Shown here one piece after another: positions 4,256 to 46,867 of a DNA stretch of 64,000 nt. A model generated the notes under the pieces. That model had not been told where the DNA came from, did not search any database, and worked only from the letters and a program-made list of their open reading frames with translations. Made by a program: the position numbers and the translations under genes. Source of the DNA: Mustelus asterias (Eukaryota); contig NC_135809.1 of NCBI RefSeq assembly GCF_964213995.1, positions 23,250,001 to 23,314,000 of the forward strand. Direction: 5' to 3'. Each line of letters opens with the position of its first letter. Positions within the stretch are counted from its first letter, which is position 1.

Positions 4256-4268
4256 GGCAGAGACTGTC

Positions 4269-4441
4269 CTGATGTGGAGATGCCGGCGTTGGACTGGGGT
4301 AAACACAGTAAGAAGTTTAACAACACCAGGTTAAAGTCCAACAGGTTTATTTGGTAGCAAAAGCCACACATTGAAAGCTTGTGTGGCTTTTGCTACCAAA
4401 TAAACCTGTTGGACTTTAACCTGGTGTTGTTAAACTTCTTA
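4269..4441 (-). mobile_element. Penelope-derived fold-back mini-element (copy 1, ribozyme core mostly deleted)
   Basis: Near-perfect palindrome ~4308-4442 plus a unique ~37-nt extension; TSD CAGAGACTGTC at 4258-4268 and 4442-4452. Confidence 0.75.
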
Positions 4442-4944
4442 CAGAGACTGTCATGCCAGAGCAGGGATCCTGAGCCACATCACGCAATGCTTAATGCAAG
4501 TTGACCACCATGGTGTAACCCATTATCTTACCAGATGGAACGTGTCCATGAAGCGGTTTTATTTTAGGCAGGCATCATGATCGGCGCAGGCTTGGAGGGC
4601 CAGCGGGCCTGTTCCTGTGCTGTACTGTTCTTAATTCTTTGAAATGATTTCGAGTTTTTTTAGAAAGTTTTTGGTAAATGATTAAAATTTCTAATATTTC
4701 ATTCTTGGCTCCATGCAGAATTGCTATCTGTCGCATGTATTCCTGTTGTCACAATTTATGTTAATTTTTCTGTTACAAATTGCTATATCCACATTTATAA
4801 TGGAAAATGTCGAAGTAATCTGGCTCTAGAATTCCTGCTCAAGATACTATTTGAAATTGTTTCTCATTTGCTATTATTTTTCAAACTGAAATTCTTAATG
4901 GCCAAAATAAGGGACTAGCCAAAATAAATGCATCCATTGAGTTG

Positions 4945-5190
4945 TTTCAGACGGCGATGAGGAGGAATTTCTTCTCTGAGAGTAGTGAATCCGTGGAATT
5001 CTTTACCACAGAGGGCTGGGTTGTTAACTACGCTCGAGGCTGAGATAGACAGATTTCTACTCAGTAAGGGAATCAAGGAGTATGGGGATAAGGCGGGAAA
5101 GTGGAGTTGAGGATTATCATATCAGATCAGTCATGATCCCATTGAATGGCAGAGCAGACTCGATGGGCCGAATGGCCTACTTCTATTCCT
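4945..5190 (+). mobile_element. CR1 LINE 3' fragment
   Basis: gatgaggaggaatttcttctct...gtggaattc motif and tail gggccgaatggcctacttct. Confidence 0.85.
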
Positions 5191-5774
5191 GGTTTTTATT
5201 TGAGGGACTGTCTCTAACAAAACCATGGGATTTGAAAGGTTACTTTTAGTCCAGAGCTGTAATGTTGTGATCTGAATTTGAATTGTGCAGTCTGATCATG
5301 TGTAATGTATCTAATTTCACAAGATGTATCCATCCCATTCAGCCAGCTTTATTTCTTTAGCTTCGAGCAGTTTCTAACAAAAGAAAATCAAAATTAATAG
5401 AAGAAAATCTGGGGTCAAATATCCAACTTTTATTGAGGTGAAATTGACATTGAATGAAATTGGGACTCGGGGCTGAATTTTAGACGGAGGCAGTGGCCAT
5501 GCCCAGTAGCTGGAAATCAGGTGGAGAAAGCTCGCCTCCGTCAGCTTGGGATACCACGACCAGATTTTACAATTAGCTGCCCAAGGTTGTGGCTTCTGTC
5601 TCCATCAAGCAGGATGTCCCAGCTCTCAAGAGCTGTTAGCCAGTCAGATGGCCAGTATCTCCCCAGTCTCAGAAGCTCCACCAAGAGTGCTCCCACTGTT
5701 AAGATGCAGTCAGTCTACAATCAGGAGTGTCAGTGAAGGATGGAGCTCAGGACACTGCCCCATAAGGAGGGATT

Positions 5775-6477
5775 CCACCCCGAGCCCCAATGGGAGTGAC
5801 CTCGCCCCGAGCCCCAATGGGAGTGACCCCACCCTGAGCCCCAATGGGAGTGACCCCACCCTGAGCCCCAATGGGAGTGACCCCACCCTGAGCCCCAATG
5901 GGAGTGACCCCACCCTGAGCCCCAATGGGAGTGACCCCACCCTGAGCCCCAATGGGAGTGACCCCACCCTGAGCCCCAATGGGAGTGACCCCACCCTGAG
6001 CCCCAATGGGAGTGACCCCACCCTGAGCCCCAATGGGAGTGACCCCACCCTGAGCCCCAATGGGAGTGACCCCACCCTGAGCCCCAATGGGAGTGACCCC
6101 ACCCTGAGCCCCAATGGGAGTGACCCCACCCTGAGCCCCAATGGGAGTGACCCCACCCTGAGCCCCAATGGGAGTGACCCCACCCTGAGCCCCAATGGGA
6201 GTGACCCCACCCTGAGCCCCAATGGGAGTGACCCCACCCTGAGCCCCAATGGGAGTGACCCCACCCTGAGCCCCAATGGGAGTGACCCCACCCTGAGCCC
6301 CAATGGGAGTGACCCCACCCTGAGCCCCAATGGGAGTGACCCCACCCTGAGCCCCAATGGGAGTGACCCCACCCTGAGCCCCAATGGGAGTGACCCCACC
6401 CTGAGCCCCAATGGGAGTGACCCCACCCTGAGCCCCAATGGGAGTGACCCCACCCGAACCCCAATGGGAATGATCCC
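5775..6477. repeat. 27-bp minisatellite, ~25-26 copies of GAGCCCCAATGGGAGTGACCCCACCCT
   Basis: Read directly; interior copies are identical and only the edge copies are degenerate; explains the 9-aa periodic ORFs. Confidence 0.97.
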
Positions 6478-7430
6478 AGGCTAAATCTGCAAGCCCTGGC
6501 AGCCTTGCCACATGGTCTGGCCACCCTTCTGCTCTTAGTAAAATAGCAGCAGTGGGCGGAGGTCCTTACCTCGGTACAATAGGCCTCTCCAAGCCTCAAT
6601 TTTCCTAATAGCAGGCAGATTGCCAGCAATTGGTAAAATACCGGTGGAGGCAGGCAGTTGTCTGGCACAGCTTTCCCCCCCCCCCCCCCCCCCCATCTCC
6701 CCCATCCTATTTTATACCCCACCCCCACCCCCACCCACTAGTCTATTTCTGAGATCAGGACTGAGCAAATTTCTGACTAATGTATGTGTGCCAATGTTCC
6801 TGCACGTGTGTGTTCCAATAAATATGACATAGCATGCCTGTTTAGAAAAGCGAGGCTGGGAAGAGAAAGAGGGAGAAAAATTGTCCTTCACGAAATGAAC
6901 TTAACTCTCAGATTTTGAAGCAACAGGATTATCTGCATCTTGATTTATCATTGACTTAAAATATCGATGTTTAACGTGTGCGTAACTGAGAGATTTGGAT
7001 TTCTTACAGCTGTAAAGCAGAGGGTAACAAAGGAAGAGGGAAAAATATAAAGAAAGGCAACTGGACAGTTTCCTTCCTCATTCTAATTTTAAAAAGGCTG
7101 CACAAGTTGAAAACAAACGGGGCATATTTTGAGGGAAAAGGATTGGAATGTCGGATGGGAGATGAATTTTGGAAACTGGTTGAGGGTGAGCCTCTCGCCA
7201 CCCTCCTTTGTGGGGACTGAGTGCGAGTGAACGAAGGGTTTTGGTTGCCATGAAGCTAAGGACTTGAATGGGTCGCTTAAAGGGGAAGATGTTGGGTTGT
7301 GATGAAGGAGAGGATAAGGTTAGAGGGCTGGGAAGGTGAGACCAAGGGTGTGATAGGAGTGCGTGGGGTATGTGGAAGAATGAATGATTTGGGCGGGGGA
7401 GACACTGAAGACCTCAATTTTCCAGGTCAC

Positions 7431-7461
<31 letters not shown>

Positions 7462-7794
7462 ATCTCAACTATAACCTGTGGCCATTGGAGCCTCCCTTCA
7501 CCACAACGCGTTACTCCTTACCACCCATAAACAAAGTAAAAGAAAGAAGAAGCAGAAGAGAAGGAGGGAGAGAGCGAGGGAGATGGGAGTGGAAACAGGG
7601 AAACAGCATGCTGAAGACCTCAAATGAGCAATCATATTCTCTGACTTTGCAATCCACATAACATTGAGCAGTAACTTCTTAACTATTTCTAACAAGCTCA
7701 TTAACACATTTACAATGGAGTCTGCCTATGAAAGGACATACCTTCAAATCCAGCTTTTTGAGCAAGATTTTGGCCACCTGTTTTACTGATGCAT

Positions 7795-8088
7795 GATGGC
7801 ACAATGGTTAGCGCTGCTGTCTCACAACGTCAGGCACCTGGGTTCAATTCGGCCTCGGGTGACTGTGTGGAGCTTTCATGGTCTCTCCGTGTCTGTGTGC
7901 GTTTCCTCCGGGTGCTCCGGTTTCCCCCCTCATTCCAAAAGACGAGCTGGTTAGGTGGATTGGCCATGCTAAATTCTCCCTCAGTGTACCTGAACAGGTG
8001 CCGCAGTGTGGCGACTAGGGGATTTTCACAGTAACTTCATTGCCATGTTAATGAAAGCCTACTTGTGACACTAATACATAAACTGAAC
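7795..8088 (+). mobile_element. V-SINE with alternative tail ('tail B')
   Basis: HE1 head and core, then ctaaattctccctcagtgtac...ttttcacagtaacttcattg...cttgtgacactaat. Confidence 0.85.
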
Positions 8089-8715
8089 TATCTCCTTATA
8101 TAGTTCAGTGTAAGAGTTTATTTGATAATCCCCTCTTGTGAGCTGCTTCAGGACGGTCTTACTACATTAAAGGTGATAACTAAATGATGATTATTGTTAA
8201 TTATAAACTTGTGTTTGTGAAGGTGCTGTAACGTTGACACTAATGGGAGTGTGTGGTTATAGCACGAGTGTTCATTTTCAATATAATGGAAATATCAAAG
8301 TGAGAACTAAAAGCATGTACTGATTTACATTTTAATGCATGAGTCCCGTTAACCTCTGACCTCTAGCCCTGTTTCACCTGAAGACCATTGCTGTTAACTC
8401 CCACAATGCAACAGCAAGATGGCTTCTACATCGTAGAAACCTAGCGAGATCTCTGATGTTAAAGGAGATGAAAGGCTGGGAATTGGTAATCTTTTCCATT
8501 ACATGTACTGCGTACAGAAATAGTGTAACAATGTACACCATTTAACCAAACTTTGTGCCGCCTCCTGGAAGAGCTAAGGCCAATTTTGGGAAAACTCGGG
8601 TAAACATTTACTTGACCCCTTTAAGCCAATCTGGAATAGGTGTATAAAACCGCAATAGTTCATTCTTATTATTATTCGTTGCAGTTAACTGACAACTCAA
8701 CTCTATAATTGGAAA

Positions 8716-8916
8716 TCATGATGTGGAGATGCCGGCGTTGGACTGGGGTGGGCACAGTAAGAAGTCTCACAACACCAGGTTAAAGTCCAACAGGTTTATT
8801 TGGAGTCACGGGCTTTCGGAATGTTGCTCCTTCCTCTGATGAAGGAGCAGCACTCCGAAAGCTTGTGATTCCAAATAAATCTGTTGGACTTTAACCTGGT
8901 GTTATGAGACTTCTCA
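8716..8916 (-). mobile_element. Penelope-derived fold-back mini-element (copy 2)
   Basis: Same inverted arms and extension as copy 1; imperfect TSD ctataattggaaa / ctataactgggaaa; CTGATGA...GAAA core at 8836-8860. Confidence 0.75.
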
Positions 8917-9459
8917 CTATAACTGGGAAAGTGGCTCATTCAGGCACCTGCCTAGCTGCTTTTTATAGGACAATAGCGAATCCATGCCCACCTCGAGCTT
9001 TGGTGGTCTGTAGGGCTGCAGTTCTGCAAAAGGAAATACTCGAAGCTAACTCTTCAGTGTTGATTTAACAGAGTTGCTGGGTTTGTTTTTTAAGAGGTGA
9101 TTTTGGTGGGGCTTGCAGAGACTGGGGGATAAACTCTGTCTGCCTGCTCAGGTGGTTTTAAAAGAACACATTCCATTAAAAGAAAAGCTGGGAGTTCTCC
9201 TCATTCCTAGCCCAAAATTATTCCCTCAACGAACACTTCCAAAAACATATTTGGGTGATTTTTTTTTCTCTCTTCCTGCACCTGGGTGTGTATATTGGAT
9301 TACACACAGGAAAATCAGATTTGAGAGGATCACATTGCCATAAGGGAAAGCCCCAGTTTTCCATCTATTTAAACTTGATGTTCTGTTCAATGAGAACTGG
9401 ACTTCCTACACTGCGATGGACTGCTGCCAGGATCTCTGGAATGTTGCCTGTCTGTGGCC

Positions 9460-9960
9460 ATCCCACTTTCTCACCAGCAGCTAAACGCTAATCCACACTT
9501 TCTTCACCTCCAGAATTGACTTCTCCACGGTGTTTTTTTTTTGCCGGACATCTGGTTCTCTTTACCCCCCTCCCCATTCCACCCATCACAAACTCCGGCT
9601 AATTCGGCGCTCCCTGGCCCATGGCTCTTTGGACTCGAGTGAATTGACTTCAAAGGCCTAGTTTCCAAACCCCTTCAGGGCCTTGCTTCACCCTCCGTGA
9701 CCGATCCTCTCCAGCTGTACATCTTCTCGACTCCTCTGAAACGGGATTGCTACTCATTCCCCACTCTTACCCTGCCTTCATCGGGGCTTTTGACCACTGT
9801 GTCCCAGTGCTTTGAAATTCCCTCCAAAAATCACTATTTTGCCGTTTTACTTCCAGCCTTTGAAAGTCTTTTTTTAAAAAAGCCCATCTCGGCATACATG
9901 TCATCACCGCTCTATCTTCCGTTCACTTTAAAAATTATTTTTTCCTCTGCTCCCTTGCTC
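9460..9960 (+). mobile_element. Degenerate L2-clade LINE 3' region
   Basis: ctaatccacactttcttcacctccagaattgac resembles the L2 LIHAFITSRxDY motif; downstream sequence is L2-like but heavily decayed. Confidence 0.5.
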
Positions 9961-10339
9961 CATCTCTTCTGTCCTATTATGCATATTTTGTTATGGACAG
10001 CAATAGAAAGTTATTAAGTTAACGTTGGCGTAACAAAGTACAGAAACAAAAAAGAGGTCAGCTAACTTACTGAAAATAGCTTCTGCATTTCGGACAGAGC
10101 TTGTAATCTCGAGCTTGTTAAGGCATTTGTAAATACTGTAACAACCTGGCTCTGAATAGTTATTATTTAATCTAATGTGTAGTGGAATTGAACCCTTAAA
10201 GCTTTTTGCTAATGACACAATGTGGCCAAGCAATATGTTTATGGGAGGCCAGTGTAATGAAGTCGTGGTCTGAAACTCTCTGTTTAGTACCTGTCAGTTT
10301 GGACTACTTCATCTAAATGTAATTGTTACAGACCAAGGG

Positions 10340-10620
10340 AGGACATTCTTTCTTCCACCTTCTTCCGTCGGGAAAAAGATACAAGGTCTGAGGTCACACA
10401 CCAGCCAACACAAGAACAGCTCCTTCCCTGCTGCCATCAGACGTTTGAATGGACCTACCTTACATTAAGTTGATCTTTCTCTACACCCTAGCTATGACTG
10501 TAACACTACATTCTGTACTCTCTCCTTTCCTTCTCTTTGAACAGTATGCTTTGTATAGCGCACAAGAAACAATACCTTTCACTGTATACCCAATACATGT
10601 GGCAATAATAAATAAAATCA
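10340..10620 (+). mobile_element. Rex1/Babar LINE 3' fragment
   Basis: Homologous to 2440-2727. Confidence 0.8.
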
Positions 10621-11769
10621 CAAAAGGTGGACTGGGACTTTTGTTACCTGTTTGAGAAAGGGGGCAGTTCCTTCCAAGGATCTTTCCTCGGTGTGCTGTG
10701 GCTTTCAATGAGATGCACTATCATGAAAATCCTGAAGTATAGGCCTGGATTTTCGCCAAGTTGGGGTGGTCCGGGAGTCCATTAAAAATGACAGCTGGGA
10801 CGTGTTTCTGGGTTTCCCAACCCCATTCCTGGGGCCTCCGTTTTTCAGGAGTACCTTTTAAGGGTGTGGACTGGTTCGGGTAAACCCTGACTTGGCCGGC
10901 TCCATGGTGGGGGGAGGTCAAGCCCTTCGCGATATTCATGGTGTTGAACTATGTCCTTCTCATGTCCCCCATATCAGGTATTCCCCCCCGCCCCCCCCCC
11001 CCCCCCGCCCCATCTCCCTATGGCCCTTCATGTCTACTATGCTAAGCTATACTCCGCCACCTGCCCCTTATGCCCACAATGCAGTCATGTCAAGTACTAC
11101 CATGCCCACTGATCCACAAGACACTGAGTACAACCTATAGTGATAATAGGTTGGATATAAAAAACTTCTTTAAAAAACTCCATCACCCAGACCCTATTTC
11201 TAGCAGAAACTGCAAGTACCCACAACTCTTAACCTTGTGTATTGTGCAATTGACAGCAAAGATCAGAGAGCCAGAGCTATCAATCAAGCAATATTTTCCT
11301 CAACAGCTCTGTTGTTTTAGTACTCTAAAGGATGTATGGACACTCAGCCAAGAGTACATAATCCATTACTCTATCGAAACACCTAACCCCCAGAGAAAAC
11401 ATTGCTTCCTTGACGGCTCTGGCTGTCAAGTCTCTTTTGTCAATGTCACAGTTTTTAACGCAAGATAGAGTGTAAATTGATGAGACTTATTAGACTGTCG
11501 TAAATACTTACTTTTTTCAAAAAGTGGAAAGTTATCCATGATGTTATGAACACATTCTATTGTCACAATGGGTTCATTGGTTCTATACAGTGTATAATTG
11601 GTGAATGAGCATGGAAGTGCCATAACTTTAAATGGGGGAGGGTTTGAAGGACCATAGTGGGTGGGTGGGGGCATACCTTGGCATGGGGGGCATTAGGGAC
11701 CCTAGTGATGGGGGGGAGATGTTACAGGCATACCACATGGTGTGTGGCTTAGGGGGAAAGTAGCGGTGA

Positions 11770-12460
11770 TGTTATTCCTTTGTCCTTCAGGGTAGTGGAT
11801 GCCAAGTGTTTGGGAGGTGTTGCTGAAGACGCAATGCTGATTTGTTGCAGTGCGTACTATAGACCATATAAATGGCAACTGGTGATAAAGTGGGTGGACA
11901 TATCAGCTGAAGTGCCCGTCAAACAGAATGCTTTGTCCTGGATGATGTGGAACTGTTTTGTTGCAGCTTCACCCATCCAGGCAGCTGGTGAGTATTTCAT
12001 GACACTTCTGACATTGTGCTTCTTGGGTGGTGGAAAGGTTCTGTGAAATCAGGACATGAGCCACTTGCCGTAGAAAACCCAGCCCCTAACTTGTTCAGGT
12101 AGCCACAGCATTTATGTTCCAGGATCAGTGAGGTTTCTCTCAACGGTGAGCCTCAGGATGTTGAAGTCGATGCTAAATAAGGCCAGTGATTGTCATGAGG
12201 TGATGGTCATTTTCTGTCACTCGAGGCACAAATGTAGCTTGTAATGTGTCAGTCAAACTGGGATGATGCATACGCTGTGCGGACTGAGGATCTGGCCTCC
12301 GCCATTACAAATGGAAATGGAATCGAAACTGCAGTGATCAGTGAACAGCTCGCTACTGACATTCTGATAGCAGGAAGGTCATTAATGAAGCTGCTGGAGA
12401 TAACTGTGACCTCCTGTAGTAATGTCTTGAGGTTCCAATTATTGGTCTCCGACCACAACC
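11770..12460 (-). mobile_element. Degenerate family-B CR1-group LINE (RT region)
   Basis: Reverse-complement similarity to 20400-20950; minus-strand SSFINDLPAIRMSV. Confidence 0.6.
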
Positions 12461-12488
12461 GTCCTCTTTTATTTAGTGTGACTTTATC

Positions 12489-12768
12489 ATAAAATCACGA
12501 CAGCGCAGAAGGAAGCCATTCAGCCCATCGAGTCTGCACCGAATCTCCAATAGAGCATTGTACCCAGCCCCCTAAACCCTGTGACCCCATGCATTTAATA
12601 ATACACCTAATCTACACAACTTTGGATATTGGGAGGAAAGTGGAGCACCCAGAGGAAACCCATGCAAACACTGGGAGAATTTGCAAGACTCCACAGTCAC
12701 CCAGGATCAGAATCATACCCGGGTCCCTGGCGCTGTGAGGCAGCAGTGCTAACTACTCTGCCACCGTG
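12489..12768 (-). mobile_element. HE1-type V-SINE
   Basis: Head, core and CR1 tail as in the other copies. Confidence 0.85.
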
Positions 12769-13153
12769 AGGTTCCTGGAGAGGACATGCCCCGAACTTCA
12801 TTGATTTAAGATTCTTGATGCAGAATTGACTCAATGTTGCCTCGATACCTTTTACCTCACTGCTGGTATTCAGCTCCCATGTCCATTACTGAACACGGTG
12901 TCAACAGCTAAGTGGTTCGCACACAACAAAACTGATTATTCGTGGGTAAGAACAGCTTGTTAACCTTGTTCTGTTGTTAATACATTCTGCTATCTTCCTT
13001 TATGTCTCTATTAACACCACCTCCAGTCCTCAACACTTCCTTCCTTTGTCTTGTGTCCTAAATATTTTTTTCCAATTTCTCCTTGCTCACGCATATCCCA
13101 GACCTACTATTTTATGGCAATTATGCTCTGCCCACTCTTAAACAATACAAAAC

Positions 13154-13645
13154 AGGGCAGCACAGTGGTTAGCACTGTTGCCTCACAGTTCCAGGGACCT
13201 GGGTTCATTTCCAGCCTTGGGTGACTATCTGTGTGGAGTTTGCACGTAGGTTAGATGGATTAGCCATGGTAAATGTGTGGGGTTACAGGGATAGAGTGGG
13301 GCAGGAGGACCTGGTTAAAATACTCTGTCAGAGAATCAGTGCAGACTCATAGGCCGAATGGCCTATTCATCCAGCAGTAAGCATCTTCAGTTGCGAGCAA
13401 TAAAAGAACTAACTTCAGAAAGTAAATCAAAGATAAAGGTTTAATCAAGAAACGTCATTACACCAACACTCAGGCCACGCCCTGAGCCACACAAGCTCCC
13501 CACAATCCCCATCTCCTTTCTATTTATACCTAGTCAGCTGACCCTCACAGCATATCACCATTGGTTACATTATAACAGATTCCAATGTTATCATTGAGTA
13601 CATGATAACATGGCCTCTTTGCACCATGGGGATTCTATGATTCTA
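13154..13645 (+). mobile_element. HE1-type V-SINE interrupted by a solo LTR
   Basis: Head gggcagcacagtggttagcactg; tail split at tggcc and resuming at 13611 as tggcctctttgcaccatggggattctatg. Confidence 0.8.
13364..13610 (-). mobile_element. Solo LTR (247 bp)
   Basis: 5-bp TSD TGGCC (13359-13363 and 13611-13615); minus strand begins TGTTATCAT, has TATAAA then ATTAAA, and ends GAATA (probably a mutated ...ACA). Confidence 0.7.
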
Positions 13646-13667
13646 AAATCTATCATAATAGATCTTC

Positions 13668-13800
13668 AAACCTGAAGTAGAGTCATACGGACTCGAAACT
13701 TTAACTCTGTTTTTTTTCTCCATAGATGCTGCCAGACCTGCTGAGTTTTTCCAGCATTTTCTGTTTTTATTTCAGATTTCCAGTATACGCAGTATTTTTG
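13668..13800 (+). mobile_element. Penelope-like element terminus (second family) with decayed hammerhead motif
   Basis: CTGAAGtA-GAGTC-atacg-GACTC-GAAA then ctccatagatgctgccagacctgctgagtttttccagc; related partial copy at ~26180-26275. Confidence 0.6.
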
Positions 13801-14094
13801 CCTTTATCATATCGTTGCCAACTCCAATCACTTTGATGATTGGGTGTAGGCTGATGGAGAAGTAACTGATCTGGTAGGAATTGTCCTACTTTTGTGTAGA
13901 CTGGATATTCCCAGGAAATTTCCACATTGATTTTTTTTATTCCAAAAATATATTTTATTCAGAGAACTTGTAAAAGTACATTTCAAATTGGAAATTACAG
14001 AAGGTGCAATAAAATTCATCTTTTCCCCATCCGGCATATTGCCCTCAGAGGAGCTTCAATACGGTTGCGATATTCTTGATATTGACATACATTC

Positions 14095-14431
14095 ATAGAA
14101 ATCATAGAAACCCTACAGTGCAGAAAGAGGCCATTTGGCCCATCGAGTCTGCACCGACCACAATCCCACCCAGGCCCTACTCCTTTATCCCTACATATTT
14201 ACCCGCTAATCCCTCTAAACTACGCATCTCAGGACACCAAGGGCAATTTTAGCATGGTCAATCAACCTAACCCGCACATCTTTGGACTGTGGGAGGAAAC
14301 CGGAGCACCCGGAGGAAACCCACGCAGACACGAGGAGAATGTGCAAACTCAACACAGACAGTGACCCGAGCCGGGAATCGAACCCAGGACCCTGGGGCTG
14401 TGAAGCAGCAGTGCTAACCACTGTGCTACCG
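14095..14431 (-). mobile_element. HE1-type V-SINE
   Basis: Full head, core and CR1 tail. Confidence 0.9.
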
Positions 14432-14979
14432 TCAATGTCAAACATGCAGTCTAAGGGACTCTACTTGGTTTCCAGCCTTTCAGTCCACTATGGCTGTATG
14501 GCCTTTGACAATGGTCTTTCCACATTTTGCTTCTGCAGTAGTTTCCCCGAAGCATTAGTGCCTCCCTTAACACGTCGTCCTGGATCGTGGAATGTGCCAG
14601 ATGTGGACAACTCCATCCACTGGAAGACCAGCAGTTTTCGGCCAGACCAAAGAGGATCTTTCACGGATTTAAATGGTCCTCCAGCACCAGTTGATATTTA
14701 TCTCAGTGTGCGTTTCTGGGAGCAGCCCGTAGAACACACGATCCTGCTTCTCGGAGCTGCTCGGAATGAACCTCGACAAAAATCACTGCATCTTTCTCTG
14801 GCCCTTCTTTGTAAATTCGGGAAGGACGTGGACAGCAGCCCTCAGGGTGGCTGTTGTGGGGGAATGTGTACAGGGTTGAAATCTGTGCTTTGCGTTTAAG
14901 ATCTAATGGGGGGCCCTTTCTCACCATCAGCCACGTTACATCTTGGTGCTTATTTGAAAGTTGTGATGATGAGGCAAGC

Positions 14980-16260: not shown

Positions 16261-17454
16261 ACCTGGTCTTTCAACTTCCTTTTAATATAGTAACATCAAA
16301 GAAGGAGAAACATTGAATTATGTTAAACTTGCATTTTAGTATACTTTTATTACACGTTCTGCAAGTCTATCTAACCCATTTCTCAAAAATTATTTGTTTT
16401 ATTTCTCTTTTTTTCTCTCTCTCTCACTTCTATCCTTTCCTCTCGATCCATCAGATAACCCAATTTTAACACTGTCTTCGAAATGTTACAGAATCTCCAG
16501 CTTTTGCTGGAACCTGTGGTTCCCCAGTTCAGTGATGAAGCGGAGATGAAATTGCTCATTTATCGGCAGTCGGTTCATACAGGTGCAGTTTCAATGAAGG
16601 GCTGAGCTAAGTTAATATATGCACAGTTTTGGCGTGAGTCCAGATTTCAAAGTACACTTCAGACTGCAGGTGTGACTTGACAGGTTTTATTTTACAGTCT
16701 TCCCGTGTGAACTTGTCCTATAAAGGGATATTGGCTGACCTATCCCGCAGTTCATTACACGATCTCTGGTGTTGCCACACGGATCCTGGTGTGCGCACCT
16801 CAATGATCAAACCACGAAAGCTTCTCAGAACCTACTGCGTAAAATACCCTTACTTTGAACACGTTATCTGATGGGAAACAGGGCTCTGATAGCAATCAGT
16901 TTGGCAAAGTTGATGGCAGCTTGAACAAAAGCTGCTGCGGTGGTAATGTGATACAGACTGTGGTTAGTCTTTTAGCTGAATTGTATTTGATGATCTTTGG
17001 ATTGCATTCAATGCTTTAACAGACTTGGTGGTTTTTGTCTCTCTGCAACCACAAAATCTCTGCTATCTTGGTTTATGATGTCAGCTAAACAACTTAGCAC
17101 GGTTTTGTAATGCGCTTTCATTTATCATGTACTGTCAGAGTATTTGCTACTGTTCAGCAACTTGAATGCTCTCATCAAGGGCCAGTGTAGAACGCGTTTG
17201 AACCAGGCTGTTAGAGGAAGGAACTGAAGAGGGTAGGCCTAAAATGGAGGTATGTTGCTGCTCGGAATTTGGTAGACTGGAGCAAAAATGCTGTGACCAT
17301 TGCCAGATATCCACTATCTCTGCACGGACACTAACCTCATTAAGGTACTTTTATGATATTTAAACCAGGAACAGAAGTTGCTCCAGGTTATCCATTATAT
17401 TTAGTGTATATACTGGTGTATTTGCCTGTATGGTGGCTGCCATCCCAGTGTTTT

Positions 17455-17755
17455 AATTTAGTTTATATATTAGTGTCACAAGTAGACTTACATTAACACT
17501 GCAATGAAATTACTGTAAAAATCCCCTACTCGCCACACTCCAGCAGCACCTGTTTGGGTACACTGAGGGAGAATTTAGCATGGTCAATGCACCTAACCTG
17601 CACATCTTTCGGACTGTGGGAGGAAGCCGGAGCACCCGGAGCAAACCCACGCAGACATGGAGAATGTGCAGACTCTGCACAGATAGTCAACCAAGTCTGG
17701 AATTGAACCTGGGTCCCTGGTGCAGTGAGGCAGCAGTGCTAACCACTGTGGCACC
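17455..17755 (-). mobile_element. V-SINE, tail B
   Basis: Reverse complement of the tail-B SINE. Confidence 0.88.
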
Positions 17756-18204
17756 CTATGTGGTCGACATTGATGAACATTGACATGCATGTTGAAGGAA
17801 TCAGGGCTGTGTCTTGATCACTTTTTGTTAAACCGTGGTTGATTACAGTCAGTATAAATTAGCAATTATATTTACCTTTGAGCACTTTATATATTTATTT
17901 ATTTTGAAATCTAAACTGTTAGTGTCTTAACGACTGGAAACCAGGGTTGCAAACTCTGGTTGAAGGTATTCTAGGGGACTTGTCATGTGATGACCTTGAC
18001 TGCATTTCACCTGGCCGCTAGGTGTCAGTCCTTGTGACTTTACTGACCTTTATAACAGTGAGGTCCCCAGCAGTTCAGAATCTTTATCCATGGTTTTGTG
18101 TTAGCAGCAGATCTCTCGAGAACCTCAAAACCACCTGTGAGCACATGAAGAGGGGAACCAATTTCTCCATCTTTGCCCCCATTCATCAGTCTCCATCTCA
18201 TTAT

Positions 18205-18478
18205 TACGAGGGGGCATAACTATAGGGTTCGTGGTGGAAGATACAGGAAGGATATCAGAAGTAGGTTCTTTACGCAGAGAGTGGTTGGGGTGTGGAATGG
18301 ACTGCCTGCAGTGATAGTGGAGTCAGACACTTTAGGAACATTTAAGCAGTTATTGGATAGGCACATGGAGCACACCAGGATGATAGGGAGTGGGATAGCT
18401 TGATCTTGGTTTCAGATAAAGCTCGGCACAACATCGTGGGCCGAAGGGCCTGTTCTGTGCTGTACTGTTCTATGTTCA
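18205..18478 (+). mobile_element. Young CR1 3' fragment
   Basis: RGHNYRVRGGRYRKDIRSRFFTQRVVGVWNGLP; nearly identical to ~36303-36575. Confidence 0.92.
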
Positions 18479-18938
18479 TTCTTTCATCCTCACTTCCCAC
18501 CAACCCCAAAACTATAGACTTCCATGCTTTTGTAATCTATACCTCGAATGATAAAGGCAAGTTTCCCATATGCATTCTTCATCACCCTACTAACATGCCC
18601 TCCTGCCTTCAGAGATCTGTGGACAAACACGCCACGGTCCTTTGGTTCCACCGAACTTCCTAGTGTCCTGCCATTCATTGAATACTCCCTTGTCAAATTG
18701 CTCCTTCCAAAGTATATCACCTCTCACTTTTCAGCGTTAAATTCCATCTGCTGCTTATCTTCCTATTTGACTATCTTAAATATATCTTGTAGCCCAAGAT
18801 ATTCAGCCTCACTGTCAACCACCCGGTCAAATCTGTGTGCACACTTACTAATCCTATCCCCCACACATTCATCTATGCTGTTTTCATAAATGAAGAATAA
18901 TAGGGGACACAGCACAGATCCCTGTGGTACACCACTAG

Positions 18939-19287
18939 TGTGGAGATGCCGGCGTTGGACTGGGGTAAACACAGTAAGAAGTCTCACAACACCAGGTTAA
19001 AGTCCGACAGGTTTATTTGGTAGCACAAGCCACTAGCTTTCGAAGCGCTGCCCCTTCGTCAGCTGGAGTGGGAGTTCTGTTCACAAACAGGGCATATAAA
19101 GACACTAAACTCAATTTACATTATTTTTACGTTATATTTTGTAAATTGAGTTTGTGTCTTTATATGCCCTGTTTGTGAACAGAACTCCCACTTACCTGAT
19201 GAAGGGGCAGCGCTCCGAAAGCTAGTGGCTTGTGCTACCAAATAAACCTGTTGGACTTTAACCTGGTAAAGTGAGACTTCTTACTGT
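18939..19287 (-). mobile_element. Penelope-derived fold-back mini-element (copy 3, longest)
   Basis: ~150-bp inverted arms; exact 12-bp TSD GTACACCACTAG (18927-18938 and 19288-19299). Confidence 0.8.
19193..19227 (+). ncRNA. Minimal type I hammerhead ribozyme motif
   Basis: TAC-CTGATGA-A-GGGGC-agc-GCTCC-GAAA-GC-TA-GTG: stem I UAC/GUG, stem II, palindromic AGCU helix III; mirror copy on the minus strand at ~19031-19065; further cores at 8836-8867 and 26505-26539 (the last has GAAA changed to AAAA). Confidence 0.7.
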
Positions 19288-19485
19288 GTACACCACTAGA
19301 CCCTGGCTTCCAGTCACTAAAACACCCTTTTGTCTGGCTCCCTGGCTGTCACTCTGATTTATTTATTTATTAGTCACAAGTAGGCTTACATTAAACCATT
19401 AACCCATTTGTCAATGGGTTAGGGAGAAAGCCCCCATGAACGCGTCACCTTTCACCCCCACACGTTGTAGAGCATTCCAATACAG

Positions 19486-19536
19486 CAGTAGTTCCCGACC
19501 TTTTATATGTCATGACACACCGGTTGGGAACCTTTG
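19486..19536. mobile_element. 51-bp hAT/Charlie-like MITE remnant
   Basis: TIRs CAGTAGTTCCCGACC / GGTTGGGAACCTTTG; flanks CAATACAG and CAATGGAG (6/8 match) fit an 8-bp TSD. Confidence 0.55.
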
Positions 19537-19679
19537 CAATGGAGCAGAGTATCACACGCTAGCTGATTAAGGAGAATCACCACCACTGGATTTATGACTA
19601 GTTAGTAACTCCTTGCTTAATACTGTAGTTGTATTCCTGAAAAGTGCAACGTTAAATGAAACACCATTAAGCGAATCAG

Positions 19680-19988
19680 GTTTTATTTTATTTATTTCTT
19701 TATCAGTGTCATAAGCAGGCTTACATTAACACTGCAATGAAGTTACTGTGAAAATCCTCTAGTCGCCACACTCCAACGCCTGTTCGGGTACACTGAGGGA
19801 AAATTTAGCATGGCCAATGCACCTAACCAGCACGTCTTTTGGACTGTGGGTGGAAACCGGAGCACCCGGAGGAAACCCACGCAGACACAGGGAGAACGTG
19901 CAGATTCCACACAGACAGTGACCCAAGTCGGGAATCGAACCCGGGTCCTGGTGCTGTGTGGCATCAGTGTTAACCACTGTGCCACCCT
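19680..19988 (-). mobile_element. V-SINE, tail B
   Basis: Full head, core and tail B. Confidence 0.9.
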
Positions 19989-20377
19989 TGCAGCCAATGT
20001 AAAAGATGGAGTTAGGTTCTGAAAGACCATCTCATCAGAAATAAAATCACCCTGTAAGCGGAAATATTTTACATTGCTAAATTCTTATATTGGTAAATTA
20101 AATAACTTGACTTTTTCAGTCCCCGACCCTCTGCTATTTTTCTCATTAATTTCCTTCGTTGATCCATCTTCAGGGAATTGCTCCCTAAGCGACAAGCAAC
20201 TGACTCCAGTCTGCCGATGGAGAAATCATGCATTTCTCTGAATAGCTGGGAATACGAGCTGCTTTCCTGGTGCCCTAACAACAATCCCCACCTCACTTTG
20301 ATTCAATTGATCCTCGATTTATCTTCCACTTGTCTGTCGATTCAGTATGGCCCTGGTGTTTCTTTTTCCAGTTATGT

Positions 20378-21260
20378 TCAAGTGGGGATGTTCGCCGATG
20401 ATTGCACAATGTTCAGCACCATTCGTGTCTCCTCAGATACTGAAGCAGTCCATGTTCAAATGCAACAAGATCTGAACAATATTCAGGCTTGGGCTGACAA
20501 GTGGCAAGTAACATTCACGCCGCACAAATGGCAGGCAATGACCATCACCAATAAGAGACACTAACCACTGCCCCTTGACATTCAATGGTGTTACCATCAC
20601 TGAACCCCCCCAACTGTCAACATCCTTGGAGTTACCATTGACAAGCAAGTTAACTGGACTCACCACATTAACACAGTGGCTACAGGAGCAGGTCAGAGGC
20701 TAGTAATACTGTGGCGAGTAACTCACCTCCTGACTCCCCAAAGCCTGTCCACCATCTACACGACACAAGTCAGGAGTGTGATGGAATATTCCCCACTTGC
20801 CTGGATGGGTGCAGCTCCAACAACACTCAAGAAGCATGACACCATTCAGGACAAAGCTGCCCGCTTGATTGGCACCACATCTACGAACATTCAATCCCTC
20901 CACTACCTACGGTCAGTAGCAGCAGTGTGTATTATCTACAAGATGCACTGCATCAATTCACCAAAGATCTTTAGACAGCACCTTCCAAATCCACGACTCT
21001 TCCACTTGATGGACAAGGGCAGCAGATAAATGGGAAGACCACCACCTGGCAAGTTCCCCTCCAAGTCACCCACCATCCTGACTTCGGAATATATCACCAT
21101 TCCTTCACAGTTGTTGGGTCAAAATCCTGGAATTTCCTCCCTAATGACATTGTGGGTCAACCCACAGAACATTGACTGCAGCTCATAGCAAGGGCAACTA
21201 GGGATGGCAATAAATGCAGGCCAGCCAGCGACACCCACGTCCCACGAATGAATTTTTAAA
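20378..21260 (+). mobile_element. Family-B CR1-group LINE, RT C-terminal half plus 3' UTR
   Basis: VGMFADDCTMF (RT catalytic motif), WADKWQVTF, VRSVMEYSPLAW; interrupted by stops and frameshifts. Confidence 0.88.
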
Positions 21261-21261
21261 A

Positions 21262-22290
21262 ATGTTGGAGTTTTATAGAAGTTTGGCAAGGCCATGGCTA
21301 GAGCACTGTGCACAGTTCTGGTCACCACATTATAGGAAGGATGTGATTGCACTGGAGGGGGTGCAGAGGAGATTCACCAGGATGCTGCCTGGGACGGAAC
21401 ATTTAAGTTATGAAGAGAGATTAGATAGGCTATGGTTATTTACACTGGAGCAGAAAAGACAGAGCTGTGATCTGATCGAGGATAGTACTGCGGATAGTTG
21501 GGAACCTGTCTCGGGGGCAGGGAATTCATATGGTGTTCGTGGAAGTGGAAATGACTAGGGTTGGGAAGCATTTTCCGATCAGGGCCATTGTGATCTCCTG
21601 GACTCGTTTCGATCGCCTCAGGGGGTCGGAGAGGAATTTCCCAGATTTTTTTTTCCCCATATTGGCCCTGGGGTTTTTCACTCTGGGTTTTCGCCTCTCC
21701 CTGGAGATCACATGGTCAGGAATGGGGGGGTGGGGGTGAGTTAATAGGTTGTAATGAACAAAGCATCGTAGCTGTGAGGGACAGCTCGGTGGATAGGATA
21801 TTGGTATGTAGATAGGCTGGAAAATTGGGCGGGGATCCTGGATTCAGGATTCAATCCTGGACCGGGGAGCGGTGCGGGCTTGGAGGGCCGAAGGGCCTGT
21901 TCCTGTGCTGTATTGTTCTTTGTTCTTTGAGGTGTATAAGATTATGTGGGACATGGACAGAGTAGATAAGGAGCAGCTGTCCCAGTTAGCTGAAAGGTCA
22001 GTCACGAGGGGACATAGGTTCAAGGTCAGGGACAGGAGATTTAGGGGAATGTGAGGAAAAACTTTTTACCCAGAGGGTGGTGACGGTTTGGAATGTGCTA
22101 CCTGGGAGGGTGGTAGAAGCGGGTTGCCTCACATCCTTTTAAAAATTACCTGGATGAGCATTTGGCACATTATAACATTCAAGGCTGTGGGCCAAGAGTT
22201 GGTAAACGGGATTAGGTGGGAGATCAAGTGTTTCTTGAGTGTCGGTGCAGACTCGATGGGCCGAAGGGCCTCTTCTGCACTGTGATTCTA
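21262..22290 (+). mobile_element. CR1 3' fragment with a nested CR1-tailed insertion (21481-21928)
   Basis: RPWLEHCAQFWSPHYRKD...DLIE is interrupted at gag|g and resumes EVYKIM at 21929. Confidence 0.85.
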
Positions 22291-23074
22291 TTTGTTTGCA
22301 AAATGCATAAATAAAAGATAACAAAGTGGGAATGCATGGCGGAAGTGATTACAGTGGGCAGGAGCACCACATGAAATAATATTTATAGAATGGGTTGACA
22401 TTTCACATGAGTGTAAAAATCTCATACAAATTAATTTGTATGAAATGTTGCCTCAACTGTGTCAGTTCAACTAAATTGGTTTCAATCTCATTTACATTTG
22501 TTAGAGATTGTGAGTGTAAAATAGCACAGGATGAGAATTGGATTTAAACATTTTATGAACAAGGCTGTTTTTATACCAAATCACTTATTTGTTCAGGTCT
22601 ATACAAATATTTCATCAATTTTGTAAAAGACATTGACCCTGATTTTTTTGGCACAGCCACTCCGAAATCGGGGCGGGCGAGGCTCACTGAACGGCATTCC
22701 CTGTTGGCCTTGGGCGTGATCTTACCAGCCTCAGGTGGCTGTGCCGGTAAAATCAGGGCCATTTTTTGACATTGACTTGGAGCTGTTGCTGTGCATTAGT
22801 AACATAGGAAAGAGAAAAATGGTACTTTTGACCAGTATCTGTTTTTATATTTTAGTTTCCATTCTGTTAGGGATGGCTACTGGAATGCTGCCACCCCGCC
22901 CGCCACAGAATCGGAGCGGGCGAAGGGGGGGGGGGAACAATGGGAATGTCCATTCACCTCGGGTGGGAATTTCTGGTGTCTCAAAGCCGTAAAATCCCAC
23001 CTGACGTGTGTTTAAATACAATTCAGTTTAAAAGTCCCCCGAATGGGGAAGAGTACCTCAGAAGAATTCACAAA

Positions 23075-23281
23075 GGGTGGGATTTTCCAGCCCTTCCCAC
23101 TGGTGGAAACTTCCAGTCCCGCCAAAGGTGACTCCCGTCAAAACTTCCCCGGCGACAGGGCAGGCCAGCCACACACAACGCAGTAGAGATCAGCAGGGCC
23201 GGAAGATTCCGCCAATGGCGGCCAATGACGAACCACCACCACCACTGCCGGTTCCGTGGGGGTGGGGTGAAAATGCTGCCC
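23075..23281. mobile_element. GC-rich MITE-like element
   Basis: Termini GGGTGGGATTTTC...GAAAATGCTGCCC; related copies at 25550-25757, 38473-38581, 22865-23001 and 40410-41174. Confidence 0.55.
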
Positions 23282-23481
23282 AAGGTTCCTGATGCATAAT
23301 TTTTCCGATCCATTCTGAGGAAGCTGATCAGTTTAAAATCAGTCTGATTTAGGCGGCACCTTCTTATCACTGCACAAATCACTAGTGAATGACGAATAAC
23401 ATCTATTTATCACTCTGCCTGTGCAGAATTGAATTGAGTGTAAGTTGTGGAGATGCTTTCCAGCTTCTGGATATGATGTTT

Positions 23482-24200
23482 AGAACAAAGAACAGTACAG
23501 CACAGGAACAGGCCCTTCAGCCCACCGTGTCTGTGCTGACACAGATGCCTCTCTAATCTAATATTTTCTTGCCTCTATATAGTCCATATAACTCTGTTGC
23601 CTGCCCATTCATGTATCTATCCAGATGCCCCTTGAATGTTGTTATAGAATCTGCTGCTACCACCTCCTCTAGCATCGCGTTCCAGGCATTCACCACCCTC
23701 TGTGTGGAAAACTTGCCCCTTATATCTCTTTTAAACTTTCCCCCTCTCACCTTCAACTAATGCCCCCGAGTAATTGACACTTCAACCCTGGGAAAAAGAC
23801 TGACTACCCACTCTATCTAAGCCTGTCATAATTTTGCAAACCTCTCCCCTCATCCTCTGACGCACCAATGAAAAAAATCCAAGTTTGTTCAACCTTATAA
23901 CAGGAACTCTCTTTCTGATGTTCGGACTTGTAAAGTATGCAACATTCAAACACTACTGCGCAAGTGGCACAGGATAGCAGCGCCAATACATTGATCATTT
24001 CCAAACCAGGCAACATCCTGGTAAATCTCTTCTGCACCCTTTCCAACGCATCAACATCCTTCCAGTAGTGTGGCGACCAGAATTGTACACAAAATTCCAA
24101 ATGCGGCCGAACCAAAGTCTTATACCGATGCAACATAATTTTTCAATTGCTGTACTCAACGCCCCGACCGATGAAGGCCAGCATGCCATACGCCGCCTTG
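23482..24200 (-). mobile_element. CR1 3' fragment containing a locally templated ~105-bp insert
   Basis: YKTLVRPHLEFCVQFWSPHY...GLE, then foreign sequence 23895-24000, then CR1 resumes; tail near 23482. Confidence 0.88.
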
Positions 24201-24702
24201 TCGTTGTAATACATTCTAAAGCAACTGACCTAAACCTAATTCCAAAGATGAAGGAAGGCATAATTTTGCAAGTTTTGCATTGATAGAATTCTCCTTTGTA
24301 ATTTAGACAGTGGTTTTGACTTGGTTGGAGTCAGGATGAAAATTGCCACAATATTTTGATTTGCACACAGCTGTTGAAGTGTTCCTTTTCATCTTTCGTG
24401 GCCAGGGGAGTTTTAAACTTTATAACAGGAACTCTCTGATGTTCGGACGTGTAAAGTATGCAACATTCAAACACTACCGCGCAAGTGGCACAGGATAGCA
24501 GCGCCAATACATTGATCATTTTAGGAGGAAGCAGGCAGGTGGGGAGGGTTGGCTGCACAAAAATGCGTTCCGAGCAAACAGTACCGCTGTTGGCGTCAAT
24601 GCTGGCATGTTTACCGACAGCATATTTGTGATACAACAAAGCACAAAGGAATGCCTGGGCCTAAAGAGATGAGGAGCAGCATTGGTGGCAGTGATTACTT
24701 AG

Positions 24703-24913
24703 TAAGAAGTCTCACCAACACCAGGTTAAAGTCCAACAAGTTTATTTGGAATCGTGAGCTTTCGGCGCGCTGCTCCTTCATCAGTAGCACTCACCTGCTA
24801 ATGGGGCAGCACTCTGAAAGCTCGTGATTCCAAATAAACCTGTTGGATTTTAACCTGGTGTTGTGAGACTTCTCACTGTGCCCACTCCAGTCCAACACCG
24901 GCATCTCCACATC
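24703..24913 (+). mobile_element. Penelope-derived fold-back mini-element (copy 4)
   Basis: Opposite orientation to the other copies; TSD GTGATTAC(T/G)TAG at 24691-24702 and 24914-24925. Confidence 0.75.
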
Positions 24914-25289
24914 GTGATTACGTAGACTAATACCCAGTGCCAAAGAGTCAGAATGAATGCATGTTTAAAATCTCCACGCACCTAATCTGAGCCACACCGG
25001 ACAGCGAGGTGTCGAGTGAAGGTTTTGTCTTTGTTTCCTTGTCAGAGATAACAATCAGACAGAAGAGTGTCTAATGGCTACAGTGGGGTGCAGCATTGGT
25101 GAGCGAAGATTGGAAGGAATGTGCATCAAGGTGAACTGTTTGGAAAGAGTGTGCACTTGTGTTATTTGTGAATTGTTTATTTATTTTAAAACTTTCCAAA
25201 TAGGGTTATCTACAGGGAAAAAATATCTTCATTGCTCAGTTGGCAGCAGCTTGCCTCAGGGCTGGAAAAGCTATGGGTTTCACCCATGT

Positions 25290-25910
25290 GGGAGCTGTGG
25301 CTCAGTTGGGTAGTACTCTTGCTTCCGAGTCAGAGTGCTGTGGGTTCAAGTCCCACACTGGAGACCTGGGCCCTAAAATCTAAGCAGACACTCCAGTTCA
25401 GTGCTGAGGGACCACTGCCCTGTCGAAGGGTGCTGACAGATGAGACATCTGCCTCCTCGGGCCGATGTCAAGGACCTTACAGCACGATTTTGAAGAAGAC
25501 CAGGGCATGGCTTCATGGTATCCTGGTCAATACTTAACCCTTAATTGATGGACGGGATCTTCCAGCCCTTCCTGCTGGCAGGATATTCTGGTCCCGCCAA
25601 AGTCAAACCCCCCCCCCTGCCCCCGCGGCAGGACAGGGTGAGCCACACAAATGCCCGTAGACTTTGGCAGGACCAGAATATCCCACCAGCGGCCAAAAAC
25701 TCACACGTCAACCACAGGAAAACCTGCCGCGCAGGGGGGGAGCCGGGAAACCTAGCCAAGATCACTAATGGATTATCTGGTCGCAGGAGGAGTTTGCTGC
25801 GTGCAACTTGGCTGCCGGTGCCCTACAGTACAACAGTGACATTGCATCAAGAGTTCATTAGCTCTAAAGCGCTTTGCGACATCATGTGGTCTTGAAAGAG
25901 TCTTTCTTTA
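25290..25910 (+). mobile_element. DeuSINE (SacSINE1-like), split by a MITE at ~25550-25757
   Basis: tRNA head tggctcagttgg...gggttcaagtccc; Deu-like domain ttttgaagaaga...tcctggtcaata...gattatctggtc...tgcaacttggctgcc; L2-type tail aaagcgcttt. Confidence 0.7.
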
Positions 25911-26391
25911 CTCACACAGGGACTTCAGCGCTTCATGTGGGTTGGCATTTCAGCACAATTCGAAGGTAGTGCTGCATTATGGATGTGACATCCTCCAGAT
26001 GAGACGTTGTGTTACTGACCCTATGGCACTATTTGCACAAGGAGCAAGAAATCCTGCCACTGTCTTAACCCTCCAAAAACCAGCACCTACAAAAACATTT
26101 ATGTAGAGGGAATAACGAGGCAATGTTTGTATTGGCTCTATTATAATTTCCAATCATTTGGTAAAAGTACTGTACTACATAGGGGCAACCTCTAGACTTG
26201 AAACATTGGCTCTACTCTCTCTCCACAGATGCTGTTAGACCTGCTGAGATTTTCCAGCATTTTCGGTTTTTGTACTCAAAAGCTTGGAATGGCTTAACGG
26301 GCAATGCTTTTGTCTTTAGCAACATAATGGATTTCTCGCTTCTTATATTTTTTTTTCTGAAGTATTTTTTCTCTTCCCTTAATTAAATTGA

Positions 26392-26592
26392 TGTGGAGTT
26401 GCCGGCGTTGGACTGGGGTAGGCACAGTAAGTAGCCTCACAACACCAGGTTAAAGTCCAACAGGTTTATTTGGTAGCACGAGCTTTCGGAGCGCATCAGG
26501 CACTCACCTGATGAAGGAGCGATGCTCCAAAAGCTCGTGCTACCAAATAAGCCTGTTGGACTTTAACCTGATGTTGAGAGACTTCTTACTGT
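26392..26592 (-). mobile_element. Penelope-derived fold-back mini-element (copy 5)
   Basis: TSD CCTTAATTA(A/G)ATTGA at 26377-26391 and 26593-26607; hammerhead-like core at 26505-26539. Confidence 0.75.
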
Positions 26593-30699: not shown

Positions 30700-31027
30700 A
30701 GAATCATAGAACCCTTACAGTGCAGAAGGAGGCCATTTGGCCCAACGAGGCTGCACTGACTACAATCCCACCTCGGCCCAATCCCCATAACCCCATGCAT
30801 TTACCCTAGCTAGTCCCCCTGACACTAAGGGGCAATTTAGCACGGCCAATCCACCTAACCCACACATCTTTGGACCGTGGGAGGAAACCGGAGCACCCGG
30901 AGGAAACCCATGCAGGCACGGGGAGAATGTGCAAGCTCTACACAGACAGTGACCCAAGCCGGGAATCGAACCTGGGTCCCTGGCACTGTGAGGCAGCAGT
31001 GCTAACCACTGTGCCATCGTGCCACCC
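30700..31027 (-). mobile_element. HE1-type V-SINE
   Basis: Full length. Confidence 0.9.
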
Positions 31028-31435
31028 GTCCCTGTGATTTTTTTCTGTTTTCCTTCATTACGTGCACAAATAAACTAGAAACTGATATATGAACAAGTAA
31101 ACCATTTCCGTCAATGTTTACACTTGCATGGATAAAAATTACTTAAAGTTGAAGTTTTTAATGGTAATTACTGACAACACAGCAGGGAGCCATTCGGCCC
31201 ATTGTGTCCATGTCAGCTCTCTGCAAGGCCAGTCCAGGTAGTTCCACTTTCCTGCTCTTTCCCTCTGCCCCTGCAATCTTTTTTTCCCTCTTTTACACTT
31301 GCCCAATTTCCTTTTGAAAGCTTCAGTTGAATCTGCCTCCACCAGACGATGCATTCCAGGTCAGAGCCAGCGACGACAAAACATGTCTGGTCGTGTTACC
31401 TTTAGCTCTTTTGGAAAGCACCTCAAGTCTTATTT

Positions 31436-35945: not shown

Positions 35946-35984
35946 ATTCATTCAGAGGGAATATAATTAATTAATTCCTCTATT

Positions 35985-46719: not shown

Positions 46720-46867
46720 NNNNNNNNNNNNNNNNNNNNNNNNNNNNNNNNNNNNNNNNNNNNNNNNNNNNNNNNNNNNNNNNNNNNNNNNNNNNNNNNN
46801 NNNNNNNNNNNNNNNNNNNNNNNNNNNNNNNNNNNNNNNNNNNNNNNNNNNNNNNNNNNNNNNNNNN
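46720..46867. other. Assembly gap (148 N)
   Basis: Run of n. Confidence 1.

Follow-up and report, generated by a model that had tools for sequence, protein, structure and literature searches.

Short fold-back copies of a Penelope-like element in Mustelus asterias likely arise by copying one RNA from both cut DNA strands

How do short palindromic insertions come to be folded, each about a different centre? We addressed this question in a 64,000-nucleotide stretch of Mustelus asterias (contig NC_135809.1, positions 23,250,001 to 23,314,000; hereafter the window), in which five fold-back insertions of ~175-350 bp carry the terminus of a Penelope-like element (PLE). These insertions are 5'-truncated copies, devoid of an open reading frame (ORF), of an abundant parent, and they form the short end of a single truncation series. 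The positions at which arms end across the genome suggest that a single RNA likely served as template for both cut DNA strands and was often copied as far as its probable start.

The parent element and its truncated copies

In other genomic copies, the same terminus runs upstream into a frame with a GIY-YIG domain (E 6e-5) and a reverse transcriptase (RT; Pfam RVT_1, PF00078, E 1e-11). One natural full-length unit measures 2,986 bp; it is frameshifted and has a partial tandem copy before it (L197-L198; G000 C22, ~40.015-40.020 Mb). Tail|ATG junctions in tandem copies showed that the tail ends exactly at the ATG of the parent ORF, and all arm coordinates below are relative to that ATG: the tail spans -36 to -1, hammerhead position C3 is at -130, the predicted cut is at -100/-99 and the ORF stop is at ~-340.

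The parent has the features by which PLEs with an endonuclease (EN+ PLEs) are recognised. RT and C-terminal GIY-YIG domains stand in one ORF joined to this terminus, partial tandems form pseudo-long terminal repeats (pLTRs), inverted 5'-truncated copies are present, and a 30-40 bp tail is found at one end (37/37 pairs in the blind sample described below); the window copies themselves carry no ORF. A CX4CxxC linker was visible between RT and endonuclease (EN) in the parent translations, and a CX2-5CxxC linker in this place marks the Neptune/Nematis clades of C-terminal EN+ PLEs (PMC8557442; this paper, PMC2377424, PMC3846280, PMC4209133 and the bioRxiv preprint below are cited from excerpts of their text). 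Judged from its translations, the parent is a ~3-kb RT/GIY-YIG PLE, of Neptune/Nematis type by its linker, the two clades being told apart only with a tree. The original prediction had proposed a Penelope-like identity from the stubs and had suggested searching for an autonomous RT/GIY-YIG parent with this terminus. The RT, GIY-YIG domain, linker and tandem pLTRs bear out the identity, and the parent was found.

We then estimated abundance from a blind sample of 1.4 Mb, made up of thirty 40-kb blocks placed at round coordinates and five held-out blocks (200 kb). This sample contained 121 arms, comprising 37 head-to-head pairs and 47 singles, or ~84 insertions (one per ~17 kb). The pairing rule overlooked one further fold-back (block A22), recognised later, which likewise has one tailed and one tail-less arm. 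Extrapolation to the 3.68-Gb genome gives a copy number of ~2x10^5, and an exact 30-mer of the youngest branch alone occurred 45,289 times. As the blind rate predicts ~3.8 insertions per 64 kb, five in the window is an ordinary number; the earlier figure of about one per 5 kb is true only of the 22-kb interval chosen for it.

For end statistics, 81 insertions were scored, two lying at the edges of blocks and a duplicate arm having been dropped; of the 81, 56 stop short of the ORF. Fold-backs in the blind sample ranged from 94 to 1,878 bp, with 28/37 no longer than 360 bp, and reached ~3.4 kb at targeted loci. A separate short-only subfamily was rejected, since long members exist in every subfamily. 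What had been described as a distinct family of mini-elements is the short end of a continuous 5'-truncation series of the parent, and the stubs are likely dead on arrival.

All five insertions that had been predicted in the window, each with a one-sided tail of ~37 nt, were present (4269-4442, 8716-8918, 18939-19289, 24701-24915 and 26390-26592), and a search of the whole window found no sixth copy. In each, the same terminus occurs twice, head to head, as one arm with the tail and one without it, and copy 4 is reversed relative to the other four. The target-site duplications (TSDs) of copies 1-5 measured 14, 10, 12, 12 and 15 bp with 0-1 mismatch, some of them overlapping the element ends by 1-3 nt. 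The 5' end lies at -107 to -137 in 7/10 arms. The centre of symmetry differs among all five, as had been noted; with its own centre and its own TSD in each copy, the inversion forms afresh at each integration. The features are as follows.

4258..4271, left TSD of copy 1; right copy 4442-4455; 14 bp, 1 mismatch
4269..4370, minus strand, tail-bearing arm of copy 1; starts at -100, at the predicted cut; hammerhead core absent
4373..4442, plus strand, tail-less arm of copy 1; -107 to -38 (GAAA onward)
8703..8712, left TSD of copy 2; right copy 8917-8926; 10 bp, 1 mismatch
8716..8833, minus strand, tail-bearing arm of copy 2; starts at -125; core incomplete
8836..8918, plus strand, tail-less arm of copy 2; starts at core C3 (-130), without the stem I 5' strand
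18927..18938, left TSD of copy 3; right copy 19288-19299; 12 bp, perfect
18939..19121, minus strand, tail-bearing arm of copy 3; starts at ~-186; stem I mismatch adjoining the core
19135..19289, plus strand, tail-less arm of copy 3; starts at ~-192; includes TATA-like and initiator (Inr)-like motifs
19193..19227, plus strand, predicted minimal type I hammerhead in the tail-less arm of copy 3; the only intact one in the window
24691..24702, left TSD of copy 4; right copy 24914-24925; 12 bp, 1 mismatch
24701..24784, minus strand, tail-less arm of copy 4; starts at core C3 (-130)
24788..24915, plus strand, tail-bearing arm of copy 4; starts at -137; core mutated
26377..26391, left TSD of copy 5; right copy 26593-26607; 15 bp, 1 mismatch
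26390..26500, minus strand, tail-bearing arm of copy 5; matches the parent to ~-115, followed by a short core-derived piece at the junction
26501..26592, plus strand, tail-less arm of copy 5; starts at -137; hammerhead G12 changed to A

Formation of the fold-backs

Every one of the 37 blind fold-backs had exactly one tailed and one tail-less arm, and the 3' ends of the arms were bimodal, lying near -37 and 0. A TSD of 10-16 bp flanked 33/37, compared with 3/300 shuffled flank pairs. This pattern matches the pair of RT start sites and the two-strand extension reported in vitro for a PLE of the anole, PAc (PMC11167929). The 5' ends of the two arms were coupled: they lay within 15 nt of each other in 20/37 pairs, against 6.9 by permutation (0/20,000; rho 0.68), and identical ends occurred far upstream, including -483/-483 and -606/-606. 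In a hand count of adjacent pairs among the first 100 matches listed, the loop II type agreed in 28/30, where ~1/3 would be expected by chance. From these ends we infer two primings, usually on one RNA, and we regard the identity of the arms as moderate evidence for one template.

The TSDs of the blind pairs often include the final 1-4 nt of the tail, which suggests short primer-template microhomology.

We next examined where copying ends. Among the scored insertions, 25/81 ended at -147 to -120, at 4-6 times the rate of the flanking intervals. This interval was chosen on the first sample (20/67) and fixed before the held-out sample was analysed, in which 5/14 ended there (p=0.015 against both flanks). 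In hand counts of the first 100 matches listed for each branch, 57/100 old-branch and 16/100 young-branch arms that reach -130 ended by -140, and the next 24 nt held 6 and 8 ends, respectively. An Inr-like A lies at -136, within the hot spot (equivalent to 19190 in the window), and 17/33 long copies have a TATA-like box 29-32 nt upstream of it, a distance read by the usual TATA-to-start spacing rule. In the old-branch listing, a G preceded 11/12 starts at -136. PLE transcripts are known to start within the pLTR (PMC2377424, PMC8557442), where TATA and Inr motifs have been noted (PMC3846280). Taken from these sequence features, the hot spot probably reflects run-off at a transcription start at A-136.

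The main hot spot cannot be put down to hammerhead cleavage, since it lies 30-45 nt 5' of the cut, at the 5' edge of the ribozyme. Inversion breakpoints had been predicted to form close to the ribozyme; the ends do cluster near it, but the main cluster is not explained by cleavage.

The reading that we favour, with a probability of about 0.55, is that the five ORF-less insertions took their mirror form during integration, when the two nicked strands of the target DNA each primed a copy of the element RNA. The enzyme would nick these strands ~10-16 bp apart. From one 3'-OH, cDNA synthesis would begin at the end of the tail (-1), and from the other ~37 nt farther inside the element; in most cases a single RNA would serve both. 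Head-to-head joining of the two cDNAs would follow, frequently through filler or microhomology. Many cDNAs would run off at the RNA 5' end, probably the start site at the Inr-like A-136, to give the modal stub of ~200 bp; internal RT initiation in the 5' untranslated region (UTR) followed by run-off at the cap would give arms of ~100 and ~136 nt. RNA that the hammerhead had already cut may account for a few percent of youngest-branch arms.

Several results weigh against this reading. The one-tail rule was kept in 43/53 pairs at targeted loci and broken in 10/53, of which five adjoin a tandem copy and five do not. In the same list of first matches, 6/30 adjacent pairs differ at a diagnostic site. 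Rare variants were shared between arms in 20 cases and unshared in 161, with sharing in 11/33 pairs; the arms were each other's nearest match in only 9/33 pairs, and conversion between arms could mimic variant sharing. As to the hot spot, the held-out comparison with the 5' flank alone was not significant (p=0.11), the TATA-like box is absent from 16/33 long copies, and the promoter of the D. virilis element is TATA-less (PMC2377424). A cap-derived G was not enriched across the hot spot (22/76 vs 25/88), and about half of the G signal at -136 is explained by the partner arm. Given this overall negative cap-G result, pausing by RT is still a serious rival to run-off.

At two targeted loci, L004 and L021, rare head-to-head pairs carry the tail on neither or both arms; no TSD was found for them, and they are possibly compound insertions.

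The alternative that survives best, doubtful but still to be taken seriously, retains priming from both sides and places it on two RNAs, or on the 5' and 3' pLTRs of one tandem transcript, with the hot spot arising from an RT pause or a protein roadblock at the ribozyme 5' edge. It would accommodate the pairs that differ at the diagnostic site, all of which are at least 0.6 kb apart, the very unequal ends of some pairs and the negative cap-G test. It would also suit a subfamily that lacks the TATA-like box and ends at ~-143, immediately behind a small hairpin. However, it does not alone explain the identical ends far upstream, and an RT halted by structure should stop on reaching the stems at their 3' foot (-99, -108), not once it is past them.

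Self-priming by snap-back, in which a cDNA folds and copies itself or primes itself on an antisense template as in PMC3846280, is improbable as a general account. The coupled ends, short inverted microhomologies at some junctions and overlaps at 7/37 junctions all point towards it. But a copy cannot exceed its template in length or gain a tail, and >3 nt of filler was present at 22/37 junctions. Where arm lengths differed by more than 15 nt, the tail-less arm was the longer, reaching further 5', in 10/37 pairs (by >100 nt in five) and the tailed arm in 7/37; at locus L047, a 442-nt tailed arm sits with a near-full-length tail-less arm of ~2.95 kb inside one TSD of 13-14 bp. One strand copying itself therefore cannot be the sole route, and snap-back survives only for pairs whose tailed arm equals or exceeds its partner in length. 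A self-propagating non-autonomous family (like a miniature inverted-repeat transposable element, MITE, or a retrozyme), whose fold-back unit would itself be transcribed and inserted anew after cleavage as a hammerhead dimer, is very unlikely: the prevalence of short fold-backs, the recurrence of a few junction types and the existence of PLE-derived retrozymes (bioRxiv 2026.07.22.740005) speak for it, but centres are mostly unique, sizes are continuous with long members throughout, the unit forms no tandem arrays and 9/10 window arms lack an intact ribozyme.

The hammerhead, its cut site and the surrounding window

In the intact hammerhead of copy 3, stem I is formed by 19193-95/19225-27 (TAC/GTG), the core by 19196-19202, stem II by 19204-08/19212-16 and the GAAA by 19217-20; helix III is palindromic. 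The original prediction had correctly placed the cut after A19224. It had also written the string CAC-CTGATGA...GTG as a property of the arms, which is complete only in the plus arm of copy 3; most window arms lack a functional ribozyme. The other nine lack the stem I 5' strand, lack part of the core (copy 1 has no core) or are mutated, with core changes in the plus arm of copy 4, the G12 change in the plus arm of copy 5 and the stem I mismatch in the minus arm of copy 3.

Covariation was assessed in 57 arms (48 distinct), preselected for a near-intact core and with five arms dropped. Stems I and II were paired in 91% of cells, compared with 27-50% in slid controls, and both sides had changed in 6/9 stem pairs, including a stem I change from C-G to U-A in 12 rows. 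On this comparative evidence, a minimal type I hammerhead, a predicted ribozyme, is conserved across the family with compensatory changes, and the proposed conservation of stems I and II between copies was thus upheld. An Rfam search returned no match to a hammerhead family and only sub-threshold matches to microRNA precursors; a microRNA-precursor identity was rejected, as these matches were caused by the fold-back hairpins. Monomer folding of the motif was no better than that of shuffles (z +0.9, -1.0 and -0.45), as expected for a minimal motif.

On the opposite strand, the stem I/core stretch (window 19190-19198, and its equivalents in all copies) matches the 5' splice-donor consensus. By this match, fold-backs could offer cryptic donors in either orientation. 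Such a donor is probably not selected, because one subfamily lacks it.

To quantify starts at the cut, genome-wide patterns were used to count youngest-branch arms preceded by three non-parent bases. Arms starting at the cut (-99) numbered 1,148, against 137 at -103, 343 at -101 and 156 at -95. This is a several-fold excess, amounting to a few percent of the 45,289 youngest-branch arms, and its size is uncertain because the controls allow different bases and some -101 matches are partners of -99 matches. For the predicted self-cleavage of the hammerhead as a dimer, this excess is only indirect evidence. A deletion subfamily was rejected as the source, with two matches only. AAA precedes 32 of the first 100 cut-site starts listed, and in several cases a short stretch of A separates the arm from its partner; the pattern resembles the addition of untemplated A once RT has run off the end of a cut RNA.

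Other points count against a cut-site class. Apart from the differing bases permitted in the control patterns, the peak was not visible in the blind sample (3/81), and in vitro no RNA ends were seen at the ribozyme cut and cleavage was not needed (PMC11167929). The tailed arm of copy 1, which starts at -100, is not clean evidence of cleavage, because its partner arm spans the cut.

A joint reading, possible yet distinctly tentative, would combine all these classes. The ~10^5 stubs would come from a two-subunit RT that primes both nicks on one RNA at two tail sites; the ~200-bp fold-back would be a "strong-stop"-like run-off of the 5' UTR to a TATA/Inr start at -136, and a second, smaller class would begin at the hammerhead cut. 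If true, the cut-site class would be evidence for in vivo cleavage of transposon RNA by a metazoan minimal hammerhead.

The remainder of the window contained other features. A Pfam scan of 146/199 non-repeat window frames gave no host-gene match, and no host exon was identified; the intron 3 in which the original prediction had placed the insertions is thus putative. Three more long inverted-repeat structures (1868-2725, 30809-31654 and 39251-39987) are unrelated to the Penelope terminus and possibly represent MITE-like elements or inverted ends of long interspersed nuclear elements (LINEs). A tandem repeat at 5510-6737 has long open frames on both strands, and 57195-59945 holds degraded gypsy-like LTR retroelement frames that resemble those flanking L002, L042 and L048. 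LINE fragments, which we presume from their motifs to be CR1/L2-like, lie at 53974-54681, 35975-36496, 50643-51137 and 62237-62695. A run of 148 N (46720-46867) falls outside the five insertions.

Comparison with known systems

The inverted 5'-truncated copy, the one-sided tail, the TSD and the minimal hammerhead are all published PLE traits, and in these respects the five copies are ordinary. EN+ PLE insertions with an inverted 5'-truncated pLTR, a 30-40 bp tail and a TSD have been described (PMC3846280, PMC8557442). The parent shares with Neptune/Nematis elements a single ORF in which RT is followed by the CX2-5CxxC linker and then GIY-YIG (PMC8557442). Pen2/Pen2a of Adineta vaga (PMC3846280; scheme in PMC8557442) resembles the present family in its head-to-head inverted copy, tail at one end, TSD, partial tandems and TATA-/Inr-like pLTR motifs. 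TSDs here are 10-16 bp compared with 8-10 bp in Pen2/Pen2a, and unlike in A. vaga, ~10^5 copies are present, mostly as ORF-less stubs. The tail lies wholly upstream of the ATG here, whereas it is inside the ORF in Pen2a and PAc.

Minimal hammerheads have low activity in vitro and occur as dual motifs on opposite strands 100-700 bp apart (PMC4209133). The predicted ribozyme is like them in being type I, with CUGANGA, an extra nucleotide before G10.1-C11.1, a palindromic helix III and covarying families. It differs from those in the excerpts in its 5-bp stem II and 3-4 bp stem I, and in the genomic excess of copies beginning at the cut. Retrozymes are tandem PLE derivatives (bioRxiv 10.64898/2026.07.22.740005), with an intact hammerhead in each monomer unit and propagation as a unit; the fold-backs here are not tandem but head to head, with unique centres and an intact motif in 1/10 window arms.

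The formation of tandem and inverted PLE structures was called unexplained in the consulted excerpts of PMC8557442, and self-priming was proposed for the inverted ones in PMC3846280. The literature covered, in which subscription papers were thinly represented and supplements not included, held no description of this family, of PLE twin priming or of start-site run-off. The closest biochemical likeness is to PAc (Poseidon of Anolis carolinensis; PMC11167929), in which two RT start sites bound the tail, both strands are cleaved and extended and a dimer is predicted. The main text of that paper offers no model of head-to-head products, and the ribozyme was dispensable in vitro, with no RNA ends at its cut.

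With an insertion about every 17 kb, often in fold-back form, the family matters for repeat annotation and as a source of false microRNA-like hairpins. Its copies are also valuable as a large natural record of how PLEs insert. The end statistics exclude simple snap-back as the sole route and yield three predictions: that a single RNA is primed at two places, that transcription begins at -136 and that the hammerhead cuts at -99.

In L1 twin priming, both nicked strands prime on one RNA and leave an inversion inside one TSD, with segments that do not overlap. On the favoured reading, the fold-backs would share with it the two nicked strands and the one RNA, together with the inversion within one TSD. 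Unlike the segments of the L1 products, their two arms cover a common 3' region, each beginning at a fixed point ~37 nt from that of the other.

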